From Botryllus schlosseri (lineage: Eukaryota), in contig CM119373.1 in NCBI GenBank assembly GCA_051294905.1, positions 31,062,001-31,126,000 of the forward strand: 64,000 nt of DNA, read 5' to 3'. Position 1 is the stretch's first letter. Every line of letters begins with the position of its first letter. A model generated the notes under the pieces. The model had not been told where the DNA came from. It ran no database searches and saw only the letters and a program-made list of their open reading frames with translations. The position numbers were made by a program, and so were the translations under genes. Positions 7,911 to 64,000 of this stretch are shown here, piece by piece.

Positions 7911-8611
7911 GGTTCCTATCCGTTGTCGTATGGTCACTTATCCACAGAATGTTTATGCTATAGCTGTGGCAGCTTTCTGTATAAATTAAAATTTATGCGA
8001 TAATATGTTGCTCTGTGGAGAGGACAGGTATATACATCTTTATCATATAGGTACATGCAAATAATAGATTTGGGTTGTAGACACACCTTTATTATGCTAA
8101 TATTACGCACAACGTGGGGCCAGGAAAAATGACTTGGTCGCTTTTGAAATTATATCGAGTACATGGCATTAAATACCGCTATTCAAATGAACGCGTTGCC
8201 CTAAAACGACTTGTCCAGCAGTTTATAAGCTAATATTGTTGACGGCGCCCTTTGAATCCCGTCGACATGAAAACACGGCACCCCAGCAACTAAAAAATTG
8301 GTTATCTTTCAAGATGGGCCTGTATTAGAATGGTAAGTATTATTGTTACCACAGACTAACCGCCTTTGCCCTAATATAGTGCGACAAAAATGACAAGAGC
8401 AGCGTCACAGCCAACAAGCGGAACATGTTTGCAAGCCGGTTAACATGCATTTATCGTAACCCAGGAGGTCGGTAATGTTCTTCGCCCACATCCACATTCC
8501 ATCACATCCACATTGGCCCGATATTCCCAGTTGTACTTCACACACAAGTAGCCATCTTGCTCTCGATAGACGATTCCGTATTACTGTGCCTTAAAGGCGC
8601 ACTGCACTTTA

Positions 8612-16292: not shown

Positions 16293-16940
16293 TCAAAATT
16301 TTGGTTTTCCTTGTCTGCCATTTTCAGGATATTCATCGGGCATAGTGCCGATTTGATTCTGGCGTAGCGTCGGATCAAAAGTAGGTACAGCGATGCATGA
16401 TAATCCTTCCTTGACCGATCGGATCGTGTGAGAAATCGCGATCGGCACAAATATTACACAAAGCAACGCGATCGCGATATGTATACCATAGACGGTGTCG
16501 ATACAAGCTAAATCGTCTGCGTCTGGCAGAGCGGAAGATAGAACACCTTGTATGTTTATGACAACGGCGACAATTCCCGTCACAATATTTACGATGTGCA
16601 TCTGCTTCGTATCCCGTTTTTTCAGTGCGCAACCTAATATCCCAAGAATAAATGCCGCCACACCAGACCAGATCCCAGTGGCATTTTTCGCGAACTGTCT
16701 CAAGCGATCGATACGGCCATGATCACATGATGGCTCGTTATCATAATAGCCCGTATGTTTGACATCTTGTATATCATACGTGAGCGAAATCACAACAATT
16801 CCAAGCGATAAAGCGGAAGATCCAATGATCAATTCTGCAACTGCGTGGGGTATCAGCCATCTCTTTTTCGTCGGCTCGACTTGAGTTTTCTGCATAGTTT
16901 CGATCTGTTTTCGGTTGTTGGCGTCTTTTGTCAGATCCAT
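16293..16940 (-). CDS. Intronless four-TM CD20/MS4A-like protein (215 aa)
   Basis: Same four-TM layout as the 7332 gene, with the family-typical TM2 motif TGIWSGVAAFILGILG; aligns by eye with the 7332 and 43450 paralogues (LIPH-AELIIG; IHIAIALLC). Confidence 0.8.
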   Translation of the reverse strand: MDLTKDANNRKQIETMQKTQVEPTKKRWLIPHAVAELIIGSSALSLGIVVISLTYDIQDVKHTGYYDNEPSCDHGRIDRLRQFAKNATGIWSGVAAFILGILGCALKKRDTKQMHIVNIVTGIVAVVINIQGVLSSALPDADDLACIDTVYGIHIAIALLCVIFVPIAISHTIRSVKEGLSCIAVPTFDPTLRQNQIGTMPDEYPENGRQGKPKF

Positions 16941-36858: not shown

Positions 36859-37350
36859 ATGTCGGGTCATATATTGATACATCAACGGGATTTTCTCAAC
36901 ATCAAAGAAGGAGGTCGACGAGCTAAACGGCACTTAAATAACATTGCACGAATAGAGGCCACTCTTGGCGGTCTGTCAATACTAATCTCTATTGGCACGA
37001 TAATACTGTCGACACCACAAGACGGACTTCGATTTGTAAACACACAGGACGGCATCGTAACTCACAGTTATCAAGGCATATGGAGTGGATCGCTTCTGAT
37101 TGTATGCGCAACTGTGGCGTTTCTGTCCGGCAAAAAGCAAAGCTCTGGGATACCTACCTTAAGTGTGATACTATCGACGGCGACTGCTATTGTATTATTT
37201 GTATCCGTGATATTATCTGTGTTATCTTCCACAGTCCATACGTACCTGGGGCAACCTATGATGGTTTTACTGCACGCGATTGTCATTGTTTTGGGGTTCG
37301 CGGGGCTAATCACGGTGGTTGTACAATGTACATTCATGCATTTCCGGTAG
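36859..37350 (+). CDS. Intronless four-TM CD20/MS4A-like protein (163 aa as read; probably frameshifted before its tail)
   Basis: Four TM segments with SYQGIWSGSLLIV (family TM2 motif). Stops right after TM4; a plausible tail continues in another frame to 37519. Confidence 0.8.
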   Translation: MSGHILIHQRDFLNIKEGGRRAKRHLNNIARIEATLGGLSILISIGTIILSTPQDGLRFVNTQDGIVTHSYQGIWSGSLLIVCATVAFLSGKKQSSGIPTLSVILSTATAIVLFVSVILSVLSSTVHTYLGQPMMVLLHAIVIVLGFAGLITVVVQCTFMHFR

Positions 37351-43449: not shown

Positions 43450-44031
43450 TCAGTATATTGGCTTTCCAGGGTCCTTTACGAGGTCTTCAATAACCACAGC
43501 ACTGGTTTGGTTTGATCGTGTGGTAGGTACAGCGGCGCCCAAACATTCCTGATTGACACAGCGGATAGTATGGGAAATTGCGATCGGCACAGTTACCACA
43601 CAAAGTCCCACGATCGCAATATGCATAGCAAATACGGTCTGAATACAAATAAAATCTCCTCCATTGGGCATAACAATCGATGTAGCTCCGTGTAGGTTCA
43701 TGACGCCGGCGACAATGCCCGACACGATATTTGCGACCTGCATCTGCTTTCCAACATTCTTTATTAGTGCCAAACCTAGTATTCCAAGAATAAGAGTCGA
43801 GACGCCAGCCAAGATCCCGGTACCATTTCTCGCGACACGTTTCAAATGATCCAAGTAGATATCAGTACATTCCCCGTGACCCCAATTGTGAAAGTTATAC
43901 GGACTGATAGCATATGTGGTCGGAATCAAAACAATTCCCAGCGATATCGCAGCAGATCCAATGATCAATTCTGCAATAGTGTGTGGTATGAGAAATCTTT
44001 TGTTCCTCTGTTTGCCTTCGGTCTGTTGCAT
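43450..44031 (-). CDS. Intronless four-TM CD20/MS4A-like protein (~193 aa), paralogue of the 7332 gene
   Basis: TM segments nearly identical to the 7332 gene; first ATG at 44031 (track start 44058 is GTG). Confidence 0.8.
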   Translation of the reverse strand: MQQTEGKQRNKRFLIPHTIAELIIGSAAISLGIVLIPTTYAISPYNFHNWGHGECTDIYLDHLKRVARNGTGILAGVSTLILGILGLALIKNVGKQMQVANIVSGIVAGVMNLHGATSIVMPNGGDFICIQTVFAMHIAIVGLCVVTVPIAISHTIRCVNQECLGAAVPTTRSNQTSAVVIEDLVKDPGKPIY

Positions 44032-51075: not shown

Positions 51076-54000
51076 CAGTGGCGGCTCGTGACAATATCGG
51101 GTGGTGGGGCAAGGGCCGCAAGCGACTTGTTATCAATATGACGTCACAGTAGCGTTTTTCAACGTTCATGATGGCCACATGAATTTCCCGTAAAACAATG
51201 ATTTTTAACGTAGGTGCCGCGAGAGGTTTGCCGGTGGCGTGACTTGAAGTGCGGTAACAAATATTTTATTCATTGTTTTTTATTCAAATGATTATTTAAA
51301 AAATGTACGCGAACTAAGAATCGTTCCCATGCCACGAATCAATCATCAGGTTATCCTTAGTAGCATGCGTTATGATTTCGTGGTAGAGATTACGCAAGCG
51401 CCGAGTAAGACTATACCAAAAATACACAGACCAACTACCTACAAAGAGCATTCGCATGACACCTTGTGGTGTTTTAATCGTTCCATGCTCAGCAATTCTG
51501 TAAAGTGCTGCAGCGCCTCCGACCCGATTTGTATATGGATTCTCGTCCCGAAAGCGAGTCAAATCGATTTGCCCTCGTCCGAAAGTGTTTGGTACACGAT
51601 CCTGATGCGTTACGACCTGCAGGGGATAGGCAATCAAAGCGTTGGCACCCATAAGCGTAAAACATTATAAAAAGCCAGCTGTTATCCATGGAAGATTAAT
51701 TACGAGTCTGCCTGCCATCATTCAAGCAGGAATCACAGCATTGTGTTAAATTGAAATGCGAGCACATATCGCATTAAACAATTTCATGAATAAATTATTT
51801 CATCTTGATGAATTTTTCACTTTTTTTCCATAGCCATAACAAAATATATCGGTAAATTAACTGTCAGTGTGCCTCGAGTAATAAGGATGAAAACCACTCA
51901 CTTTTCCTTAGCCATAGACATGGTTGAGTTACCTGGGCTCACTTGATTGAAATTATTCGGAAAGAACATGATGTGTACAGTCGTCCGCCCACCAGCATTA
52001 ATTTATGTCTTGTATAAGTATTGTGCGCGACGTGATTTCTTATTAGCAAAATGTTCAATAACGAGTTTATTGAAATCTGGAATTCCCAGAACCACGTCGT
52101 TGTGAATCAAGAGAACAGCCAACGCATTAAGCCCATCTTGGCCCATCATGTTTCTGAGAAAGGTCTTGATACGTTTCAATGTGCTGAAACTGCGCTCGGA
52201 TTACGCGGATGAAATCGGGGTGGTCAAAATGATATTCAGAAAGCTAGTTACTGTAGCAAAGTTGATCGAAAGCGAATTTTCAACTAGGAATTTTGAAAGT
52301 TCACTAGTGGTTTTAATTTCCGAAAAGGATGTGTTAGAATACAAACAAGTCAACTCGCTCTCCAACCGAGCAATGTCGATCATCGGGTAATAACGAGGCA
52401 CGCTGCGCAGTAGTCCAGAAGGAAAATGAATTTTGTAGGCAGGGAAATTTCTCGGATTTAACAGGGCGAAAGTAACCAACTGGTCACTATTCAGACGATG
52501 TTGGATTTGGGACATCAGTATATCGCAACATTCGTAAGCCGCAACAAGCAGGTTTTGCACACTTATCCCACGACGTAAAAGCGCTGTGTCACCAGCGAAG
52601 TGTACATTCGCCCGGATATGCGAAATTGCCTCACAAAAATGTGCAATACACAATTTCGCAGTAGTACCATCGGCCATACGCGACTGAAAAGTGCTGTACA
52701 GTGTATCGACGTGCATGAAGATGTCACAAAAAAGCTTCAAAAAGAACAAAAATTCTTCGTCTTCCAGGAGTCGTTTAAGCCCCGCCGCTTCACGTATGGA
52801 AGTATCATCCGAGACAGGAGAACTCTCAATCACTGAGAAGCATTCCAGAAGCTCCACCCTACTCTCTGACACTCGTTGCACAACTCTGGATTGGAAGTTC
52901 CACCGTGTTGATACGCATCTAGGTAACCGGTGCTTGCATATGTCGCGCAATAGATCAGATCGCTTTGGCGGAACAGAGAAAAAGGAGGAGAACCCTGAAA
53001 GATTTGCAAAGAATATCTTGACAGAAGATATTCCTAAGCACATTTTTTTCACTACAAGATTGAGCTGATGCGCGTAGCAATGCAAAAAATGCGCATGCGG
53101 GTAAACTTCTTTCATTAAAACTTGTACGCTATGTCGCGATCCGCTCATGACTGCTGCGCCGTCGTAGGTTTGCGCAATAAGTTTCGACTCAACTGAATAG
53201 GGCTGTAATGTTTTTTTTAATACGTAAGAAATTCCGACAGCAGTGCGATCGTCAACAGCCACAAAGCTGTGGAATCGTTCGACTGGCATACCAAATTTCG
53301 TGAACCGAAAAATCACGACTAGTTGTGTCAAACACGTAATGTCAGTTGTTTCGTCAGACTGAATAGATAGAAATTCAGCGTCAACAATCTCGGTAAACAA
53401 ATGCTGTAGATAGATGTGATATATCGAATCAAGCACATCATTTTGAATAGTCTTTGAGGTACCCTTAGCTACTGTCGCGGTGTCGAGATGTTCGCGCAAA
53501 ATGCTATCAATGGAAGCCGTGTATTTAATTAGATCCAAAAATACCCCCCTATTGAGAGAGCATTCCTTCTCATCGTGGCCTCGAAGGGGCAATTCATGAA
53601 CTCCAATAAATTTAATGGCATCAATCACCCGAGAGAGAACATGCCTATTCTTATCTACAAGCTCATTGTGCTTGCAGACTGATACGCGATAACTTTCATT
53701 GAGCTGCGACATTACATTTACTCTGCCAAACAATTTATATTTAACTGCACTAGCCATGTGCACTTGGGATTTTTGGTGCGTTTTCAGACGCTCTGACAAA
53801 TGCTTCAGATCGCGATAACCAATTTTGTTCCAACAAGAGCCACTGCTTCCGGTACCGGCACTGTCGAATAAAAGACAGTAAAAGCAAAACAAGGCGTTTT
53901 TATCCTCGCCATAAGTAAGCCATTCATTTTTATCGAAATGCGCTGAAGAAAAGGCACGAGTGCGCTTTCCTCCGGCGTACGATTGGATCAATGGGCAATT

Positions 54001-54121
54001 TCTAGGCTGATACGGACCTAGTCGCTTTACCTCTAATTTTTGCTCTAAAGGCAGCTGGCTAAACGGCGTACGGAGCAAAGATTCAACACGATTCATGTTC
54101 GCACTTGACCTGACTACTTAT
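51076..54121 (-). mobile_element. hAT DNA transposon (ZMYM1/PRKRIR-like clade); only the 3'-side terminus is visible
   Basis: Terminus cagtggcggctcgtg at 51076 interrupts the host MITE (putative TSD ctttcaac, 51068-51075); transposase at 52003-54096. The matching cacgagccgccactg end was not found in the window, so the right coordinate is a lower bound. Confidence 0.8.
52003..54096 (-). pseudogene. hAT transposase with a single premature stop at 52201-52203
   Basis: TTF-type Zn finger (WLTY...LFCFYCLLF), DUF4371-like LRGHDE, SDETTD, TYDGAAVMSG, HCYAHQLNL and STRW motifs. After TAA the same frame continues SERSFSTLKRIKTFLRNMMGQDGLNALAVLLIH to a stop at 52003. Confidence 0.92.
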
Positions 54122-54489
54122 CTGCAGAAATGGAAATGACTATAAATCGAGAGATTGCGTATGCCTAACTGGAAAGGTCAACGAGTTCGGACACATACGC
54201 AATTGTTATCTCATAGATTGGACAAGGAAATGTCGGTACTTGTGAAATAAGTGCCCGGAGGTCTAGGCGGCAATAGTTGTTGCACCATAAAATGGGTGTG
54301 TAGTGGGATAGTAAGTGTTTTGCATGTACATTGAAATGAGGGTGAAAAAATCATTAGGCCTGGTAAGGAACAAGTGAAAAAAATAACCCTGTCATAGGAA
54401 TAACACGGGATTAAAATAGGAGAGAGTCAGTACACATGAAACGCCAAGAAAAAGGGGGGTTTGATCCGCCAAAGACGATGGGGAGTTGA

Positions 54490-55473
54490 TCGACGCCACA
54501 TGTCGTATTATTTACTTGCGCAGATACGCGGAAAAGAACATACAATGTGTTGAGTTTGGTCGAATCGGGTGCATTGCTAAACACACGGGATTGTGTGATA
54601 TTTCTGAGAAATCACGGGTTGTTGGTGCGAAGGATGAAATGCAAGCGATGTAAAAAAATAATGAAAGAGGAAATTACGCCAACAGGCGATGATGGATTTA
54701 GGTGGCGATGCAACCCCTGTGACACTACGGCGACTATACGGAAACACTCGATATTCGCGGGAAGCAAGGTAGAACTTCCCAAATTATTAATATTGTTCTA
54801 CTTTTGGTCCCATGACGCGTTGCAAACCCAAATTTCGCATGAAGCCGAGATTAGCCAACGTTCAACGGTCACCTGGTGTGGCCGATTGCGAAAGCTTTGT
54901 ACGGCCGAATTTCACAGGAATAAGCGACGTTTGGGAAATGAAGGCGGTTGTGTAGTTATTGATGAAACGCATCTGGCTAAGCGTCGGGTTGCCTCAGACA
55001 AAGGACCAGCCGTTAAAGCCATTTGGGCGTTCGGGGGAATAGACAAAGCCACCGGAGAAATGTTCATCGAAATAACTTCTGACAGGACTGCTCAAGTATT
55101 TCGAAAGTTCATAGTAGAAAATGTGGCAGAGGGGTCCACAATTTTAACCGATGCCTACCCTTCCTACAGGGGCATAGAAAGCTGGGGGAAGGGTTATATA
55201 CACGGTGTAGTGGACCACTCCCGGTGGTTTAAGGACCCTCGGACAGCTTTTTGTACTAATGAAATCGAGGGGGCCTGGGGACAGCTTAAATATCATTTAC
55301 ATAGGTCTCGTGGTTTGGCACGTCACCTTTTGGCCGATTACGTAGGGGAGTTTTTGTGGAAACGTCAACATCAAAAGACTGACCGATTCTTGGCACTCCT
55401 GCGCACCATACACAATGATCCACGGTATAATTTTGACAAATTTGATGGGTCTCCTGTATTACCACATTTGTAA
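54490..55473 (+). CDS. Merlin/IS1595 (ISXO2-like) DDE transposase, apparently intact; true start unresolved
   Basis: Zn-ribbon CKRC...WRCNPC; catalytic VVIDET, ILTDAYPSY, HSRWFKDP, TNEIEGAW and YVGEFLWK motifs. Frame open from 54490 without ATG until MKCKRC; acceptor-like ttatttacttgcgcag ends at 54523. Confidence 0.92.
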   Translation, partial: STPHVVLFTCADTRKRTYNVLSLVESGALLNTRDCVIFLRNHGLLVRRMKCKRCKKIMKEEITPTGDDGFRWRCNPCDTTATIRKHSIFAGSKVELPKLLILFYFWSHDALQTQISHEAEISQRSTVTWCGRLRKLCTAEFHRNKRRLGNEGGCVVIDETHLAKRRVASDKGPAVKAIWAFGGIDKATGEMFIEITSDRTAQVFRKFIVENVAEGSTILTDAYPSYRGIESWGKGYIHGVVDHSRWFKDPRTAFCTNEIEGAWGQLKYHLHRSRGLARHLLADYVGEFLWKRQHQKTDRFLALLRTIHNDPRYNFDKFDGSPVLPHL

Positions 55474-55602
55474 ACCCCGTTTTAAGGTTCCAGGACGGAA
55501 ATGACGACATCTGTTGTTTTGTGTTTTTACAGACGGTAGTCTAGGTCTAGTGCGCGATTATATTTAGTTTATGACGTGGCGAGAACCACCACTGTCTGTG
55601 CC

Positions 55603-58119
55603 ATGGACCTCCTTCCTTATTCTCTGTCTATCCTTGTTGGTATCATTTGTACGTCTGATGTGGTGCTGCATACGGCGGCGAAAGGCATGCACGGACTTGC
55701 AGATCCTGTAACAAGTAGGGCACGGTCTTTCACTCAGGGGACGCTAGGGGAACTACGGGGACCCCTGCCTGAAGAATGGATCACTCTAAATGATACACAA
55801 TGGGAGGACTATCACTTGATGAGCATTTTCAACAAAACGGCGGAGCGACATGTATATAGACGGCCTGAACTATTTTACAGCAAGTCATTTGGTTACGTAG
55901 TAGCTGAGCGTGTTTCATTACAACAAATGGCGTTTCCACATGGAAGATATTGGACAAGTGTACAAGATTTTGAACGCACCTGTCTCTGTCAACGGCGCCT
56001 GGGCCAAATCATGCCCAATATTTCCTATGATGTCCTTAAACAAACGAACATGTTCGTGCGTCCAATAGGGTATTATAGGATTCGTTGGTTCTGGAGTGGG
56101 GACCAATACATGTCGTTTCATGACCTTGGCAAGAATTACTCTATGTTTGCTCTGACCAAATTTAAATTAATTATGATGAGGCTATTCGAAAGTTATTCAG
56201 CTATTGAAGCATCATGCCGTCAAGAGCCTATGGGAGACCGGGACAGAGCCGAAATAAATGAATTGAATAAGTATAATGCCAGTAGCAATAGTTTTACACA
56301 ATGCTGGCATCTAATACAAAAAAGAGCCTATCGGGGCGACTATTGGCAACAGTTGTACTCCTATAGGGAGAAAGGGGTCATATTGGGAATCTGTACAAGG
56401 TGTGATTTTAGAGGAGTTATCTCTGCCCTGGAACCAAATAAGGCAGATATAATCATCCAAGAAATAGTAATGACTAAAGTAAGTAACGTGCAGTATGTGC
56501 GCACTCCATTGATACCATGCCGGGCTCAGGGGGGATGGATTAATCAGGACTGGTTTGAGCACTTATGGCCAAGGGGTCGTGTAATAGCCCATTCGTGCAA
56601 CTTCTGGCCAGGAATGAATACCACTCTATGGGGTGATCTACCAACGACAAATTTTCCTCCCAGAGTAAAATGGATACAACCGTCTTTTCCAAATCTGGAT
56701 CACAGTGTGTATGCTAATCGTGGCAATCAGGGCATGAGGTGGAATAACCTTTTTGATGGTGTGCCGACTAGGTTTAAGGCATCTACATCAACATGGGTAC
56801 CTTTTCCCAGGCCTATGTGGAAATTCTTCCCCTCTCTTACTGCATCGGATGAAGCATGTAAAAATAGAATATCACATAACCAGGATTTGTGCCGCGACCC
56901 TGTAGGAGGACCCATTTTGAAGGCAGCCTTTTGGGACCATGTTCATTTTGATCCGGAGCTAAACCGACCACGCTTCCCAGGGGGACCAATAGAAATTAAA
57001 GGTGAATTGGTATCAAGCAATACCGCCCCACGGGGTACGCGTAGAAGGCGTAAAAGGTTCCTGGCAGGACTGGTATGTCTCGTTTTTGCTGCGATATCAG
57101 CGATCGCCGTCGTTGCGACAGTTTCATCCCAGTTACATGAAGAAACATTGGATCTTAGCCGACAAATCAATAATAGAATGATACAGGCCACGCAGAGGTC
57201 CACTGCACTAGGGAGAAAGATTAACGAACTCTCTCTTCTGCAAATAACCCAACAACAGAAACTGGATCAAACGATCGCTACCATGGAAATGAGGACAACG
57301 TTAACAAATAAACGACTTGTACTAATGGAAAAGTACATAGAAAGAAACCGACAAATGATAGTACGACAAGCCACAGCATCCCTGACCTCTTTTCAAAACT
57401 ATAAGGAAATGAGCGAAGCTGAACTGGCCCTTGATCGATTGGTTTTGGACGAGTTGGCTAATTTAACTGGCAAGTTAATATTCGACTCCAGCAAAGTATA
57501 TCTCACAAAAATCCGACAAGGAACGCTACGGATAAAAGAACACGCTCAGCAATTAATAGCCTATAGAGACGCTTACATCAATGAGACGAATGACATTGGG
57601 GAAGAGCTACGTGCTAACCGAATCAGTCTAGATCAAGCCCAACAGGGTGTGGATTTGGGTTTACAAGTTTGGAGAAAAGATCTAAATAAGAGTGTGTACA
57701 TGAATATTTCTGATTGGCGATATGAGAATATTACAATTAAGCCTTTCGAATTTGTTGGAGGAAAAGAATTTATGAATAACTTGGGCCAAACGATAGAAGA
57801 CATGACACATGGTGTAGGAAGCTTGATAAAATCAGTAGGAGATAGCACAGGAGATCTTCTACAAGATGGATTAGGTGCGGTCGGAGGAATATTCAATAAG
57901 GGAGTGAGCGGAATTTTTTCCGGCCTGGGGTCTGTTCTAATTCCAGTAATTTTGATATTGGGGGCCGGGATCATCTTGTTTTGTGGCTGTCGTTATAGCA
58001 GTCTTTGCTGTCCTAAGTTAAAACCTAAGGTACAACGGCGGAACACGAATACTCAGTTGACGATGTACATATCATCGGCATCGAACCCCGTTAAAACGGC
58101 CAAATCGACAAGAATGTAG
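55603..58119 (+). CDS. Viral envelope-like fusion glycoprotein (class-I-like, ~838 aa)
   Basis: gccATGg start; signal peptide; many N-x-S/T sequons; RRRRKR|FLAGLVCLVFAAISAIAVVA (furin site plus fusion peptide at 57040-57120); long heptad-rich region; Gly-rich amphipathic pre-TM segment; TM VLIPVILILGAGIILF; Cys-rich tail. Confidence 0.85.
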   Translation: MDLLPYSLSILVGIICTSDVVLHTAAKGMHGLADPVTSRARSFTQGTLGELRGPLPEEWITLNDTQWEDYHLMSIFNKTAERHVYRRPELFYSKSFGYVVAERVSLQQMAFPHGRYWTSVQDFERTCLCQRRLGQIMPNISYDVLKQTNMFVRPIGYYRIRWFWSGDQYMSFHDLGKNYSMFALTKFKLIMMRLFESYSAIEASCRQEPMGDRDRAEINELNKYNASSNSFTQCWHLIQKRAYRGDYWQQLYSYREKGVILGICTRCDFRGVISALEPNKADIIIQEIVMTKVSNVQYVRTPLIPCRAQGGWINQDWFEHLWPRGRVIAHSCNFWPGMNTTLWGDLPTTNFPPRVKWIQPSFPNLDHSVYANRGNQGMRWNNLFDGVPTRFKASTSTWVPFPRPMWKFFPSLTASDEACKNRISHNQDLCRDPVGGPILKAAFWDHVHFDPELNRPRFPGGPIEIKGELVSSNTAPRGTRRRRKRFLAGLVCLVFAAISAIAVVATVSSQLHEETLDLSRQINNRMIQATQRSTALGRKINELSLLQITQQQKLDQTIATMEMRTTLTNKRLVLMEKYIERNRQMIVRQATASLTSFQNYKEMSEAELALDRLVLDELANLTGKLIFDSSKVYLTKIRQGTLRIKEHAQQLIAYRDAYINETNDIGEELRANRISLDQAQQGVDLGLQVWRKDLNKSVYMNISDWRYENITIKPFEFVGGKEFMNNLGQTIEDMTHGVGSLIKSVGDSTGDLLQDGLGAVGGIFNKGVSGIFSGLGSVLIPVILILGAGIILFCGCRYSSLCCPKLKPKVQRRNTNTQLTMYISSASNPVKTAKSTRM

Positions 58120-58206
58120 TGCACGCATATGTACTCAAAGGATTTTACTTTTATTAATTTAAATTTTTTCAAAAGTCCACAGATATACTAACTAATTTAT
58201 AATAAT

Positions 58207-61200
58207 ATGAATCGTTACCTTAAATTATGGATTGTGCTGGCAGTAGCCTTAACACTACACCGAGGATATCTTCAAACTCATGGCCAATTATTGCCCCTAT
58301 CTGCTATGAGTGTGAGGTTAGCATTTAATCTTACAGGATGGACAACGTTCCGGTATCAAGGTCTCAGATACATCCGCCTTAATCGTCTATTCAAATTAAA
58401 CGAGAGTTGGCCAATAGGTGAAACGGAAAATAATTTTCCAATATACGAAGAGACGCCCAAATTTGGTCCAACACGAGCTAGTCAGGATCAATTGTACAAG
58501 TTATTTGCACCCTCGGGGTCTGACAAGAGGTATTGGAACGATGTTAGACAATACGAAAGAGAATGCGGGTGCAATCGGAAACTATCAAGAATATCTCCCG
58601 ATATTACGTTGGCAGCCTTTACCAGAACCACAACATATCGCCGAAAGAATAACTTTGGCTTAGTACATACATGGAAGTATGTGGTAGGAAGGGAAGAACA
58701 TGGCACTATGGCTGTGCCGGGTCCGATCCTTCGGATGATATCTCCTAATGCTACTCCACAAGTTACTATACATCAACTGTTGACGGTGTACAAGTTATCA
58801 GTGATGAATATCTTGGCACAATATGCAACAGTGACAGCAAGGTGTCAGCAGCGTTTCGAAGAAATCGCGGGATGGAGAGTCAATAAAGGCGAATTTAACG
58901 TATGTGTGCACGGAGAAGACAACCAGATGCAATGCATAGGATGCTCATTTTATACAGAGGATCTGGCAGTAAATATACTTTCCAGAGACTTTGTGGTCAT
59001 GGAAATAGATAATAGCATAAGAGGATTAGGGACGAGAATGCAAGAAACTTATTCCTACAGTCAATGGCCAGCGGGAGTCAAATTACCCAGATTACATCAC
59101 GACATCGTGTGGTTGAAGGCTCGAAATGAGACGGGCCCCAGGGAGAGGCCAGCAAACTTTGATGGTCATACTTGGTTTAGATTGAGGATTTACGCTCTCC
59201 GCGAACATCTGAATAATGATACTCAACGGATAATGGGGAAGAGAAATTTTCCGACTATGTTGCAAGGCAGCATAGAATGTGAACGTAAAAAAAATCAAAA
59301 GGTTTGTCGAAATTCAATAGGAAGTTTAAAGACGGCATTGGCCTTTAAGGAAGTGTTATATGATCCATATACAAATCAACCCGTGTATGCAGATCATAGC
59401 AATGGTCGTTTACGAATTGCATCTCCAAAACCTGCAGGTCAGGAATCTCCCCTCAAAGCATGGCCTAAGAGTCTACCCAAGTGTAAACAACCCGGTAGAT
59501 TAGGCGACTTTATCCTGACTGCATCATTTAAAAGCAATGGGCAAAATACAAGGAATATGGACTATTATCTAGCTCGCCTAGGAATGTATTACGTAGAAGC
59601 AACAAAACGGCGGTTACGCCAGTTATCTTTGCCCATATATAAAATGCGGAGAAAACTGGGGAGATTGGACAGGTCCATAACTGGTGAAGAGATGGAGTCT
59701 CTAAGTCAGGCGCTACGGTCAGCCTTGACACCTCAGAAACTGAGTAGGATAAATGAAGAATTACTGAGCTATATGTCAACACGCAAGCTCATAGAGGTGC
59801 AGTTTCATGATATCCGGATATTCCGACCAAGTGTGGCCTACACAGCCACAATATGTGCTGGAATATTGGTGTATACGCCTTATGCCTATAAGGACAATAA
59901 CAAAATCAGAACTAACTCTGAAATGCCATTGAGTACCGCGGAATCAATAACGACAAAGGCTGTAAATTTTGAAGGAACCACTCGAAAAGTACCTTCTAGC
60001 TCCGTAATGCCACGAAGTAACGCGGAAGCAATAACGACAAGGACTGTAAGTTACGAAGGAATCACTCGAGAAGTGCCTTCTAGTAGCGAGACTGGTATAT
60101 GGGTTGATATCACTTCTGTTGTAGCGACTCCAGAACCCGCTGTGACACGGGTAAAAACCATAACAATTACTGAGGAAAATGTAAGAATGACGAATCAATA
60201 CGACACTAACCAATATAACTACGATTATATAGAAGGTTACGACGAAGGAATTAGCTATGCCGGTTATGACGATAATACTAGTTTTCAAGACGCTGGAAAT
60301 TACTACTACGATTATTATGACAAAGACGGAGAATATAATGTTTTATTAAAACATAGGCCCATACAGATAGCTTATACTACGGATTCTACAAATATTATTG
60401 AAACTACAATGGCATTACCAATGATTGAAACTCCAACATCAATTAAAAATACTCAATATACGACTGAGTTAACAACAGATACGACAATTTCCACGCCAAA
60501 AACGTCTGCACATACGTCAGATAGTATTACGACCACTTTATCCACTGCTGCAATCACACCACATACTGGAGGGTTGACATCGGCTATTGCTATTTCCGAA
60601 ACGACTTCATCAACATCGCTCCCAGCCATATTGACTACTGTGCATTCCTCACGCGAAGATAACACCGGCCCAAGACCAACTACATCTATTATTACATTCT
60701 TAACTACGGTGAAAACTGTTAGTGAGCAAGAAAGACGCAGGACGAGTCCCACTGATATTTTCACAACTGTGGAACCATCTATGGCTATATCAGCAGAGAT
60801 GGACACTCAGAAAAGCATTGGTATTGCCACGACAGGAGTCACCTTTTCTGAAAGTGGGTTAACAACACGTGTACCAATGGCGAGAAGTGTAAAAGCAAGG
60901 TTACAATGGAATACCATGACCTATCAAATACCCTCAAAAAATGGTGAAATGTTAGGCTCCTTATCCGTGCCAATAAGGAAAACATCCCAAATTACGCAGA
61001 TACCTGAGTCTTACATACAATTAAGTCATCACGCAAATCAAATCAAGGACACGACACCGCCAAGAGCGCATTTCAATATGTTGTTTGATACATCACAAGT
61101 AGCAACGACAGTTGAAACGCACCAATACTTCGTCACCAGCAAGTCCCGCTCTAATACAGAACCAGATAATTTAAACAAAAAGCAAGATCTACAGGTAAGA

Positions 61201-61689
61201 ACTAAATCAACGTCAATGCTTTCATCAGGTGACTATCAGAGCGATCCCACATCAGTAAGTAAAAATGATGTGATCAGAAGTTGGAAGAGTACTTCCAATA
61301 GTGCACTTTCTTCAATTACACCCTCTATCGAAGAAGAAGGAAAAACTACACTCAGTATACCGCATACCTTACCTACGGCCAGATATGACAGATTGGACCG
61401 AATTACATTTGACTTCTATGGACGATTGCACAAACTACACGAAATAGAACAAGGATATGCATCAGGTAACATTATTGTGGATATTAACAATAGAAAGGAT
61501 TTAGAAGAATCACTTAACAATTATGTCTTGATTTTTGCGGTTAGCGTAACAACAATGGTAGGATGTATGTATCTTTGTTATGCGAAATGCGGGAGAGTTG
61601 CAGCAAAACATTATCTTAAAAAGGTTGTTCGGCGGAATAACCAAAAGACGTATATTACAGCAGTAACATTGCATGAAAAACTGAGATAG
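58207..61689 (+). CDS. Type-I membrane glycoprotein with Cys-patterned head and Ser/Thr mucin-like stalk (1160 aa); putative attachment protein
   Basis: Signal peptide MNRYLKLWIVLAVALTL; head shares motifs with the upstream glycoprotein; Thr/Ser-rich ~59900-61380; TM YVLIFAVSVTTMVGCMYLCYA (61522-61584); short basic tail. Confidence 0.8.
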   Translation: MNRYLKLWIVLAVALTLHRGYLQTHGQLLPLSAMSVRLAFNLTGWTTFRYQGLRYIRLNRLFKLNESWPIGETENNFPIYEETPKFGPTRASQDQLYKLFAPSGSDKRYWNDVRQYERECGCNRKLSRISPDITLAAFTRTTTYRRKNNFGLVHTWKYVVGREEHGTMAVPGPILRMISPNATPQVTIHQLLTVYKLSVMNILAQYATVTARCQQRFEEIAGWRVNKGEFNVCVHGEDNQMQCIGCSFYTEDLAVNILSRDFVVMEIDNSIRGLGTRMQETYSYSQWPAGVKLPRLHHDIVWLKARNETGPRERPANFDGHTWFRLRIYALREHLNNDTQRIMGKRNFPTMLQGSIECERKKNQKVCRNSIGSLKTALAFKEVLYDPYTNQPVYADHSNGRLRIASPKPAGQESPLKAWPKSLPKCKQPGRLGDFILTASFKSNGQNTRNMDYYLARLGMYYVEATKRRLRQLSLPIYKMRRKLGRLDRSITGEEMESLSQALRSALTPQKLSRINEELLSYMSTRKLIEVQFHDIRIFRPSVAYTATICAGILVYTPYAYKDNNKIRTNSEMPLSTAESITTKAVNFEGTTRKVPSSSVMPRSNAEAITTRTVSYEGITREVPSSSETGIWVDITSVVATPEPAVTRVKTITITEENVRMTNQYDTNQYNYDYIEGYDEGISYAGYDDNTSFQDAGNYYYDYYDKDGEYNVLLKHRPIQIAYTTDSTNIIETTMALPMIETPTSIKNTQYTTELTTDTTISTPKTSAHTSDSITTTLSTAAITPHTGGLTSAIAISETTSSTSLPAILTTVHSSREDNTGPRPTTSIITFLTTVKTVSEQERRRTSPTDIFTTVEPSMAISAEMDTQKSIGIATTGVTFSESGLTTRVPMARSVKARLQWNTMTYQIPSKNGEMLGSLSVPIRKTSQITQIPESYIQLSHHANQIKDTTPPRAHFNMLFDTSQVATTVETHQYFVTSKSRSNTEPDNLNKKQDLQVRTKSTSMLSSGDYQSDPTSVSKNDVIRSWKSTSNSALSSITPSIEEEGKTTLSIPHTLPTARYDRLDRITFDFYGRLHKLHEIEQGYASGNIIVDINNRKDLEESLNNYVLIFAVSVTTMVGCMYLCYAKCGRVAAKHYLKKVVRRNNQKTYITAVTLHEKLR

Positions 61690-61994
61690 ATATTGTGAAA
61701 ATAATTACTGAATTATTGTAAAGGTAGAAGTTAGGGTTGTTATGTGTTGTGTTGTGTTCGGCCCGTTTTCACGGATTAGAGTCCATGTGAAATTAACTAT
61801 TAACCTAAATTTAATTCCGTTGAAATAACATAGTTTAAAAAAAATCATGCTGTATTTGTTTATGGAAGCCTAAAATTGTACGGAATTTGAGAATGTACGA
61901 GGCAAATTTGCGGTATTAACGGTGATTATACAATGACTATTATTGCGAAATACATAATTGCGAAATTTTCGGATGGTATTGCTAAGCCAAATCG

Positions 61995-62128
61995 GGATTA
62001 AGTAATGCAGTAGTGAGAAAATATGGAAGCAGTAAAAATGGTAGGATTGAGTAATACAGTAGTGAGTAAATATGGAAGCAGTAAAAATGGTAGGATTAAG
62101 TAATGCAGTAGTAAGTAAATATGGAAGC
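61995..62128. repeat. 49-bp tandem repeat, about 2.7 copies
   Basis: Units start at 61995, 62044 and 62093 (ggatt(a/g)agtaat(g/a)cagtagt...atatggaagcagtaaaaatggta). Confidence 0.95.
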
Positions 62129-62719
62129 GGGATGGCGTGATTTTTGTACATGTTGCAATAGCATATTGAAACGGCAAAATACGACCCCAATTGAGGGGTT
62201 GATCACGCCATTGCAAAACTCTTGCACAATAGGCCACAACTAATGGTGGGAAAGGAAGCGCTACAGTGGGTAATTGACGAACAGGAAATATTTAACTGCA
62301 GCAAAAGGGTGAAATTTGTCTGTAATGGGGGGCTTAATTATGCCTGAGTACAAAGGATAGCGACAAAAATTTGCTTGATGAATGTTCGGAAGGACGCCAA
62401 CCCCCTAATTTACGAAAATAGCAAATTGCTCGTGGTGATGGAGGGTGCATGCGCGTTAACGATCTTCCGCTCAAAAATGGATAAAACGCGGAGCGCAGGA
62501 ATGGAAAATCAGTTGACTCCACATCAAACTGTAAGGTGTTAGGGGAGTTGAGGGCTGGTAGCAGTTGGAAAGAAAATTTTTTTTTTTCAAATTAACAGCA
62601 ATAGGACATGCCATAATGATTGAAATATGGGCAAATATAATACGCAATGACAGAGACTTAGACTGTCCAGTTACGGATATCTAATCTCCGTGTGATAGTT
62701 AGCTTATCCATATATAGGT

Positions 62720-62870
62720 TGACACCAGTATTGGGGTGACTCGGGTCAAATGCTTTGAGTGGTTTGACCTGGAGCGGTTCGCTTACAGGGAACGAGTGTC
62801 TTGGCTTGACTCGGGTCGCATTGAGAGTCGATTGACTTGGACTTGACTCGAGTCAGAATGTGCGTTAACT
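62720..62870. repeat. GACTCG/GACTTG subterminal-type repeat of a host MITE family
   Basis: gactcgggtc and gacttgactcgagtc motifs as at 23.6-23.7, 47.4 and 48.3-48.5 kb; suggests a return to host-type repeats. Confidence 0.6.
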
Positions 62871-64000
62871 GGAAGTGACTGGTGTATCGAAGGTCGTGTT
62901 TTTGTCCCAGCACTAGTTGACACTCAACAAGTTTTGGTATGTCAAGAAAATAGACCTGAATATAACTTGGGTCATCATGGTACAGACTGCCAATATAATA
63001 TTATCGCGTGGAAACTGTATCAGTTATACCAAATGTTACTAAAAGTAGAAAAACTAATGCTCACCTTTCCATAAAGGGGAGAGAGAAAATCAACGTGGTA
63101 CTTATAGCTATGATATGAGACTTATATTGTGATCACTCGCTGCACTGATATCCTTATTATACAAAATTAAACACCCGATACTAATTCAATATAAACGCTG
63201 GTGTCTCACGGTTAGGATGATTAGGATTGCATGAGATAGCATGACATACGGATATAAGCGTAAAGTATACTATGAAATAGAATCACGACACGCCAAGCAC
63301 TCGCTCACTCATAATGTGGCCTGTGTCTAAAAAAGGTATGGATAATCCCTGCTAAAGACATTTGAAAATACAATCACTTGAGGCAAATAATGATAGTAGA
63401 TCTGGAATTTTAAGGTTTATAGTATCAGCCTGCTGTCAACGCGCTTTGCTACTGTAGTTGTTCTTTACATAACTTAAATCTAACAATATTGGGTAACATA
63501 GGCGCCAACTTACGGGATTACGAGGTGGTGCAGCCACCTCGTGACCACATTTGCGGGGTGGCGGTCACCTCGTACAAAATGCTCAAACGCTAAAGTGATT
63601 TGAGATTAGTAATCAGTAATCAGGTGAATCGATGCGACCTCGTTAGAGACGTCTTCGATTTCGGTATGCGCGTGTGCCAGGTGCAGCCACGGGGATTTCG
63701 GGGGTCGAACTTGTCTATTTTGAAACGCGAAACTCTGTCATTTTAAAATAATCATTGGAAATCTAATATTCAGCTGCAATTCAATAATTGTGTAATCAGT
63801 GTTCCGCGCGGCGGGTTTGCGAGAAACGTATTGTCAATTAGCGAGAGGTATCTGTGTTTATCTCCCGCTGAGATGGTCGCGAAATTAGATCATTCATTCC
63901 TGTGCGCATGGAAAACTTCGCAAGCCTGATTTATCGCGTCTAGATAAAGCCTGGTTTTGCAGGCCTAACAATCACATCTGCAATAGGCCCAGTTCCCACT

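Follow-up and report, generated by a model that had tools for sequence, protein, structure and literature searches.

The window analysed here, a 64,000-nt stretch of a 495.5-Mb eukaryotic assembly (G000), contains an env gene that lies within the left end of a longer mobile element inserted in a host hAT-type repeat (Table 1). Judged by hydropathy alone, the encoded protein has the layout of a type I membrane glycoprotein, with peaks at aa 3-26 and 778-796 and 11 N-x-S/T sites. The RGTRRRRKR site and adjoining hydrophobic peptide that a preliminary description of this DNA had reported are both present, the one directly abutting the other (Kyte-Doolittle peak 2.79), and R-x-[RK]-R followed by a hydrophobic 18-mer was found in all 38 long env ORFs read from the genome and in 14 of 40 homologues from outside it, a set that includes many fragments and paralogs. 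The same description had placed about 200 aa of helical, heptad-like sequence after this site: the AlphaFold model does predict long helices there (mean pLDDT 65, lower (~30-79) in the post-cleavage half), but the spacer between the fusion peptide and the GDLLQ motif, which begins at aa 750 (nt 57850), measures ~240 aa and its heptad periodicity is weak, the value observed at 102.9 degrees being reached by 246 of 3000 shuffles for aa 509-597 and by 180 of 3000 for aa 645-696. The Gly-rich segment reported before the transmembrane (TM) helix is also there, although longer than quoted; it has 24% Gly, against 5.5% elsewhere in the protein, and is strongly amphipathic with an 11/3 period (strongest at 97.8 degrees; none of 5000 shuffles equalled it). 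The TM helix spans ~aa 778-796, and the Cys tail noted previously comprises Cys 794, 796, 802 and 803.

Table 1. Features at the left end of the element and in its flank, in window coordinates.
Feature	Position	Strand	Remarks
Host hAT-type (DUF4371) transposase gene	52201..54096	-	PF14291 E 2.3e-19; belongs to the invaded repeat, outside the element
8-bp target-site duplication GAAATGTC	54227..54234	+	second copy past the right end at G000:C3:31156162
Left 9.8 kb of the element	54235..64000	+	whole element 39,928 bp, G000:C3:31116235-31156162
Left terminal inverted repeat	54235..54249	+	begins GG; 11/15 bases identical to the right end read in reverse complement
Merlin/IS1595 (ISXO2-like) DDE transposase	54634..55473	+	279 aa from first ATG; PF12762 E 2.3e-10
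Env/F-type class I fusogen candidate	55603..58119	+	838 aa
Env surface subunit, alpha/beta	55774..56988	+	aa 58-462; model pLDDT 77; no significant fold match
Polybasic furin-type site RGTRRRRKR	57031..57057	+	aa 477-485
Putative fusion peptide	57058..57126	+	aa 486-508
Predicted long helices	57127..57690	+	aa 491-597, 605-622, 645-696; dN/dS 0.08, best-conserved part of env
Gly-rich amphipathic membrane-proximal helix, 11-mer period	57769..57933	+	aa 723-777
TM helix and juxtamembrane Cys cluster	57934..58011	+	putative palmitoylation sites
Env paralog, candidate attachment protein	58207..61689	+	BLASTP E 5e-10; profile E 4.6e-46
LRR, second ISXO2 transposase, BIR-RING IAP, UBC E2, PWP3A-C-like, gag (zf-CCHC), pol (PR-RT-RNase H-Tpt1-like)	beyond the window, toward the right end

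The left boundary of the element is sharp and common to 26 of 40 fetched loci, with variant ends in three more. The termini are short, imperfect inverted sequences of the form GG...CC, and the left repeat, used as a query, missed the right end in the first searches because the two ends differ. Target-site duplications (TSDs) of 8 bp flank all nine copies in which both ends were read; together with GG...CC ends, they were found in all six large copies examined (37-40 kb), in both compact ones (~17.8 kb, L067 and L105) and in one 4.7-kb deleted copy (L034). The empty site is represented as well, in RNA reads of sister hAT-repeat copies that pass from 54234 straight into right-flank sequence. Long terminal repeats (LTRs) were not found when the last 600 nt of the window copy were compared with its first 1.5 kb (direct matches reached 10 nt at most), and no primer-binding or terminal-redundancy signal was identified in the element. 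We argue for active integration because TSDs and terminal inverted repeats (TIRs) are present. Merlin elements have GG termini, TSDs of 8-9 bp and TIRs described as 24-462 bp long (PMC8101967), with one transposase gene each; the element described here shares with Merlin/IS1595 transposons the DDE_Tnp_IS1595 domain, the GG termini and the 8-bp TSD, but it is 18-40 kb or more in length, carries ~20 ORFs, among them gag, pol, two env paralogs and accessory genes, and has a TIR matching at only the 11 of 15 positions given above. About ten further left/right end pairs lie 10-16 kb apart with no scored env or pol between them (for example, G000 C3:6128652-6141619, C2:15288067-15301718 and C3:3986215-3998339), and these are probably non-autonomous derivatives.

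Matches to PF12762 (DDE_Tnp_IS1595) had E values of 2.3e-10, 2.6e-17 and 2.1e-16, and from the sequence we infer D110, D173 and E212 as the catalytic triad of the transposase in the window. Its reading frame is open for 48 codons 5' of the first ATG (54484-54633) and paralogs begin earlier; translation may start at a codon other than ATG, or the transcript may be spliced. Toward the other end of the element, gag encodes 940 aa with a CCHC knuckle (zf-CCHC E 5e-4), for which a PDB search returned no match to a capsid fold, and pol of the window copy ends in a Tpt1-like tail 267 nt before the right end. The full Pol of the compact family reads PR-RT-RNase H-Tpt1/KptA, with RVT_1 and RT_RNaseH domains and a protease motif visible in the alignment, and lacks an rve integrase domain; an rve scan of the genome (150 of 1389 candidates scored) placed none within the window copy, which is weak evidence. 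The best PDB match of Pol was 8r0s ('Enzymatic polyprotein', E 3e-15), which we take to be a caulimovirus RT, followed by foamy Pol and Ty3. A Tpt1/KptA RNA 2'-phosphotransferase-like domain (PF01885 E 2.7e-7) occupies the integrase position at the end of Pol (L105:5493-8609 and L111:1-595) and was also seen in an outside protein (P0043); our guess is that it serves RNA end-healing or counter-defence. In one copy, pol is broken by a BEL/Pao-like element (L102:8636-9808, env orientation), the type being presumed from its motifs.

The remaining gene content resembles that of large viruses in including intronless host-like accessory genes for an LRR protein, an IAP (three BIR and RING) and a UBC E2 (L091:5256-6305, L092:86-1780 and L092:3525-3980); several PWP3A-C-like paralogs and other small ORFs also occur among the accessory genes. 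A further 9-10 kb or so of the element (window 61700-64000 and L071:1-8900), lying before these accessory genes, is poor in ORFs and 75-95% conserved among copies; it could hold RNA signals or spliced genes, and includes a 49-nt tandem repeat at window 61995-62128.

Across the assembly, 54 env matches were scored among 146 candidates (32-100% identity), 46 of them without an internal stop, and 39 of 43 scored pol loci were likewise free of stops. A listed family pol lay on the same strand within 75 kb of 43 of 53 env loci, downstream in 38 and just upstream in five; the other ten had no listed pol, with 43 of 1659 pol candidates scored and three further pol positions added to these. An upstream pol marks a permuted subfamily with the order pol-transposase-env-paralog-right end, in which pol is upstream in five copies and the right end is common to six (L060, L061, L062, L064, L065 and L066), at ~8276-8296 in env orientation, just past the env paralog. 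No terminal repeat separates pol from the adjoining transposase in five of these six copies, and the transposase occupies the position of the integrase slot in retroviruses; the permuted order may reflect a circular stage or rearrangement.

Pairwise dN/dS for env was 0.22 (300 pairs from 25 close copies), indicating purifying selection, and was lowest in the helical region (0.08), intermediate in the fusion peptide (0.15) and highest in the surface subunit (0.29). Values stayed at 0.1-0.3 up to the point where dS saturates, and the arrangement of motifs was preserved at 30% identity. Seven copies compared with the window copy gave dN/dS of 0.55-0.63; in one (L036), the differences were concentrated at aa 201-350, a mosaic pattern that is common to other copies and that, at the sequence level, fits recombination between copies. 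The closest env copies are 99.0-99.7% identical and lie on different contigs, and therefore fit germ-line amplification. Transcription of env was not seen, because RNA depth on the ORF was 0-0.26, compared with 11-32 on the adjacent host repeat, in three informative runs (3-13% of each read).

The set of genes, the termini, the TSDs, the number of copies and the selective constraint can all be read directly from the assembly. The interpretation that we consider probable is that env belongs to an enveloped reverse-transcribing element that is integrated by a Merlin/IS1595 transposase instead of an integrase. The preliminary description, which took env for a divergent, perhaps unclassified fusogen lineage, is supported in part but missed the multi-copy gag-pol-env element with Merlin-type ends to which it belongs. 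Alternatively, the whole could be a very large composite DNA transposon of the Merlin type, mobilized by cut-and-paste, whose cargo consists of a captured retroelement (gag, pol and env) together with host genes; neither reverse transcription nor the envelope would then be needed for its spread. The Merlin-like ends, TSD and transposase suit such a composite, as do the near absence of element RNA, the ~10 end pairs with no scored env or pol between them and the internally deleted 4.7-kb copy, which keeps both ends and a TSD as ordinary DNA transposons do, and Teratorn offers a precedent for a transposon-virus composite (PMC10175614). Passive cargo should decay, however, yet env is under purifying selection out to saturated dS with its layout kept at 30% identity, 39 of 43 pol frames are open and assemblies other than this one hold the same integrase-less PR-RT-RH-Tpt1 Pol; we regard the composite as unlikely.

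Rather improbable, in our judgement, is that these loci are insertions left by an enveloped exogenous virus resembling pararetroviruses, with selection acting in the free virus and the transposase providing optional integration (latency). The match of Pol to 8r0s, the survival of several intact subfamilies despite 30-95% divergence, the virus-like accessory genes (IAP, UBC and LRR) and the permuted gene order would all be compatible with a free virus, but the near-identical copies on different contigs fit germ-line amplification, and no relatives were found among IMG/VR contigs, a set in which viruses of this kind are poorly covered. In mechanism, moreover, an exogenous virus of this kind overlaps with the transposase-integrated element that we favour.

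Relatives outside this genome bear on how widely such an element is distributed. Searches of 1.84 billion representatives returned 40 env homologues at E<=0.001, all unnamed proteins, two of which (P0006 and P0009) have long N-terminal extensions, with an EGF-like domain in P0006. No env relatives were confirmed in viral and metagenome contigs, and the linkage of transposase and env was seen only in this genome. For Pol, no relatives were found in IMG/VR viral contigs, a collection weak for such viruses, whereas metagenome contigs yielded 71 loci, one of them close (L117, 44% identity, gag-pol only, on a 4.7-kb contig) and the others distant. In a quick RT tree (built without P0095 and without reference rows for retroviruses or caulimoviruses; subject to a long-branch warning), the element Pols, four ENA proteins and one marine metagenome contig formed a single long branch (SH-aLRT 100), apart from 61 mostly integrase-bearing Pols; because five outside sequences share its branch, the Pol lineage exists beyond this genome.

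Among known systems, Ty3/Gypsy errantiviruses, Retroviridae and Caulimoviridae share with the element a gag CCHC knuckle and PR-RT-RNase H, and its RT is nearest to Gypsy-type, foamy and caulimovirus-type enzymes; unlike them, it has neither rve integrase nor LTRs, its Pol ends in a Tpt1/KptA domain and its RT sits on a long branch of its own. To our knowledge, caulimoviruses have no env and no active integration, and known retroelements integrate by rve integrase, tyrosine recombinase or endonuclease, or not actively. Lokiretroviruses and env-bearing Ty3/Gypsy elements keep LTRs and integrase (PMC7947760 and PMC13524379). The nearest concept is Teratorn, a piggyBac-alloherpesvirus combination (PMC10175614) that is likewise a virus-like genome bounded by a cut-and-paste transposase and its ends, whereas here the partner is a gag-pol-env unit without its own integrase and the transposase is of Merlin type. 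Searches of the open-access literature in PMC and bioRxiv listed no description of this combination of genes and ends.

The class of the fusogen was assessed by sequence, structure and neighbourhood. Comparison with viral fusogens in the PDB, proposed with the preliminary description, gave no significant match by sequence or fold: Pfam and PDB sequence searches with the env ORF returned nothing usable, fold searches of PDB and BFVD found no significant match to a known fusogen, and F-type fusogens in BFVD ranked 43-50 with E above 1. Atlas neighbours of env at 0.88-0.90 were coronavirus spike, a Fusion_gly cluster and haemagglutinin, with a low recognition score; PF00523 (Fusion_gly) occurred in 18% of the members of the row at 0.89, and the likeness to Fusion_gly/baculovirus F had no counterpart in a Pfam match for the window protein (25 of 32 families were shown for the members). 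Internal fusion loops in a beta-rich domain, as in class III, were rejected on the grounds that the hydrophobic peptide follows the cleavage site and the post-cleavage model is all-helical. The gB five-domain fold was not among the env fold matches listed, a listing that does not by itself exclude gB.

In the Gly-rich segment the preliminary description saw a likeness to gB, which would make env a class III fusogen or a chimera of classes I and III. gB has an amphipathic Gly-rich-type region before its TM, and the helix preceding the env TM is strongly amphipathic and Gly-rich. Invertebrate retroelements also include gB-type env (PMC13524379), but the cleavage site directly adjoins the hydrophobic peptide in every one of the 38 copies, the proteins nearest to env in the Atlas belong to class I and the sole viral-envelope sequence match to the segment, albeit weak, is to a class I protein, foamy virus Env (8ozh, 909-987; profile E 0.28). 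The link to herpes gB that had been drawn from this segment was not borne out, given that amphipathic helices before the TM are also predicted in class I foamy Env (PMC11468914) and that the post-cleavage half of env is modelled as all-helical; we consider class III membership very improbable. Scarcely credible is a host-domesticated or non-fusogenic surface protein, which the lack of a significant fold match to a known fusogen would allow but which sits badly with dozens of dispersed copies within a mobile element, fresh TSDs, and the fact that of the two paralogs one has retained the furin site and hydrophobic peptide while the other has lost them.

The sequence and model evidence instead supports env as a divergent class I-type fusogen candidate that looks functional. 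The earlier proposal to that effect holds, with the layout kept in 38 of 38 copies, the low dN/dS overall and in the helices, no Pfam family and no significant PDB or BFVD fold, and, judged by sequence, env constitutes a new family among class I-type fusogens. With foamy virus Env (PMC11468914), lokiretrovirus Env (PMC7947760) and F-type errantivirus Env (PMC13524379) it shares a signal peptide, R-x-K-R cleavage, a fusion peptide, long helices and a TM, here at the level of sequence and model; it differs from them in showing no significant sequence or fold match and in being adjoined by a non-cleavable paralog. That paralog has 1160 aa, the same surface-subunit domain, a Ser/Thr-rich stalk (S+T 0.29) and a C-terminal TM-like stretch, with no R-x-[RK]-R furin-type site in its sequence.

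The surface subunit gave a weak end-to-end alignment to coronavirus haemagglutinin-esterases. The hallmark of the HA/HEF/HE family is an SGNH-esterase-type head with an inserted lectin domain, with Ser-His-Asp motifs in active HE and HEF only. All scores of this family (PMC7495468 and PMC9487903) against the env subunit were sub-significant, and unrelated small folds scored an equal or higher Z. The G-D-S and D-x-x-H catalytic motifs are absent from the aligned conserved blocks of the env family (by eye, with block placement inferred), so the env head would be at most a vestigial esterase-like fold. Pfam Hema_esterase had no match in this genome, where the control was equally silent, and a Lipase_GDSL match in one homologue (P0012) was dismissed, as it sits in the helical post-cleavage half. 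Kinship of env with HA/HEF is, on these sequence comparisons, a doubtful prospect.

If the transposase-integrated element is as we propose, host furin would cut env after the polybasic site and free the hydrophobic peptide, the long helices would refold to a trimeric hairpin and the 11/3 amphipathic helix would rest against the membrane in the manner of the membrane-proximal regions of other class I proteins, while the uncleavable paralog would serve attachment or shielding. Gag would package RNA and Pol, Pol would copy the RNA to DNA in the next cell and the transposase would join the GG...CC ends to host DNA, giving rise to the 8-bp duplications. For the regeneration of ends without LTRs, our guess is a circular DNA stage with a terminally redundant RNA, as in pararetroviruses; Caulimoviridae have circular episomal DNA replicated through terminally redundant RNA. 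We put at about even the chances that these elements belong to a new order, found in marine animals, whose members are enveloped, reverse-transcribe, replicate without LTRs (probably via a circle) and integrate by the Merlin/IS1595 route. The order-level reading adds a fusogen that would be a distant HA/HEF relative retaining a vestige of the esterase head, alongside a paralog that attaches but does not fuse, and of this the HA/HEF kinship alone is tentative. An intact, amplified gag-pol-env element with a Merlin insertion signature would add a new integration route, and the signature would show that a bacterial-IS-type enzyme can replace an integrase; should the weak HA/HEF link be confirmed, a retro-like element would carry that fold, with implications for the origin of influenza-type spikes.

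Elsewhere in the window, three intronless multi-TM ORFs (16293-16940, 36859-37350 and 43450-44031), two with weak CD20/MS4A-like Pfam matches, are a small host gene cluster.
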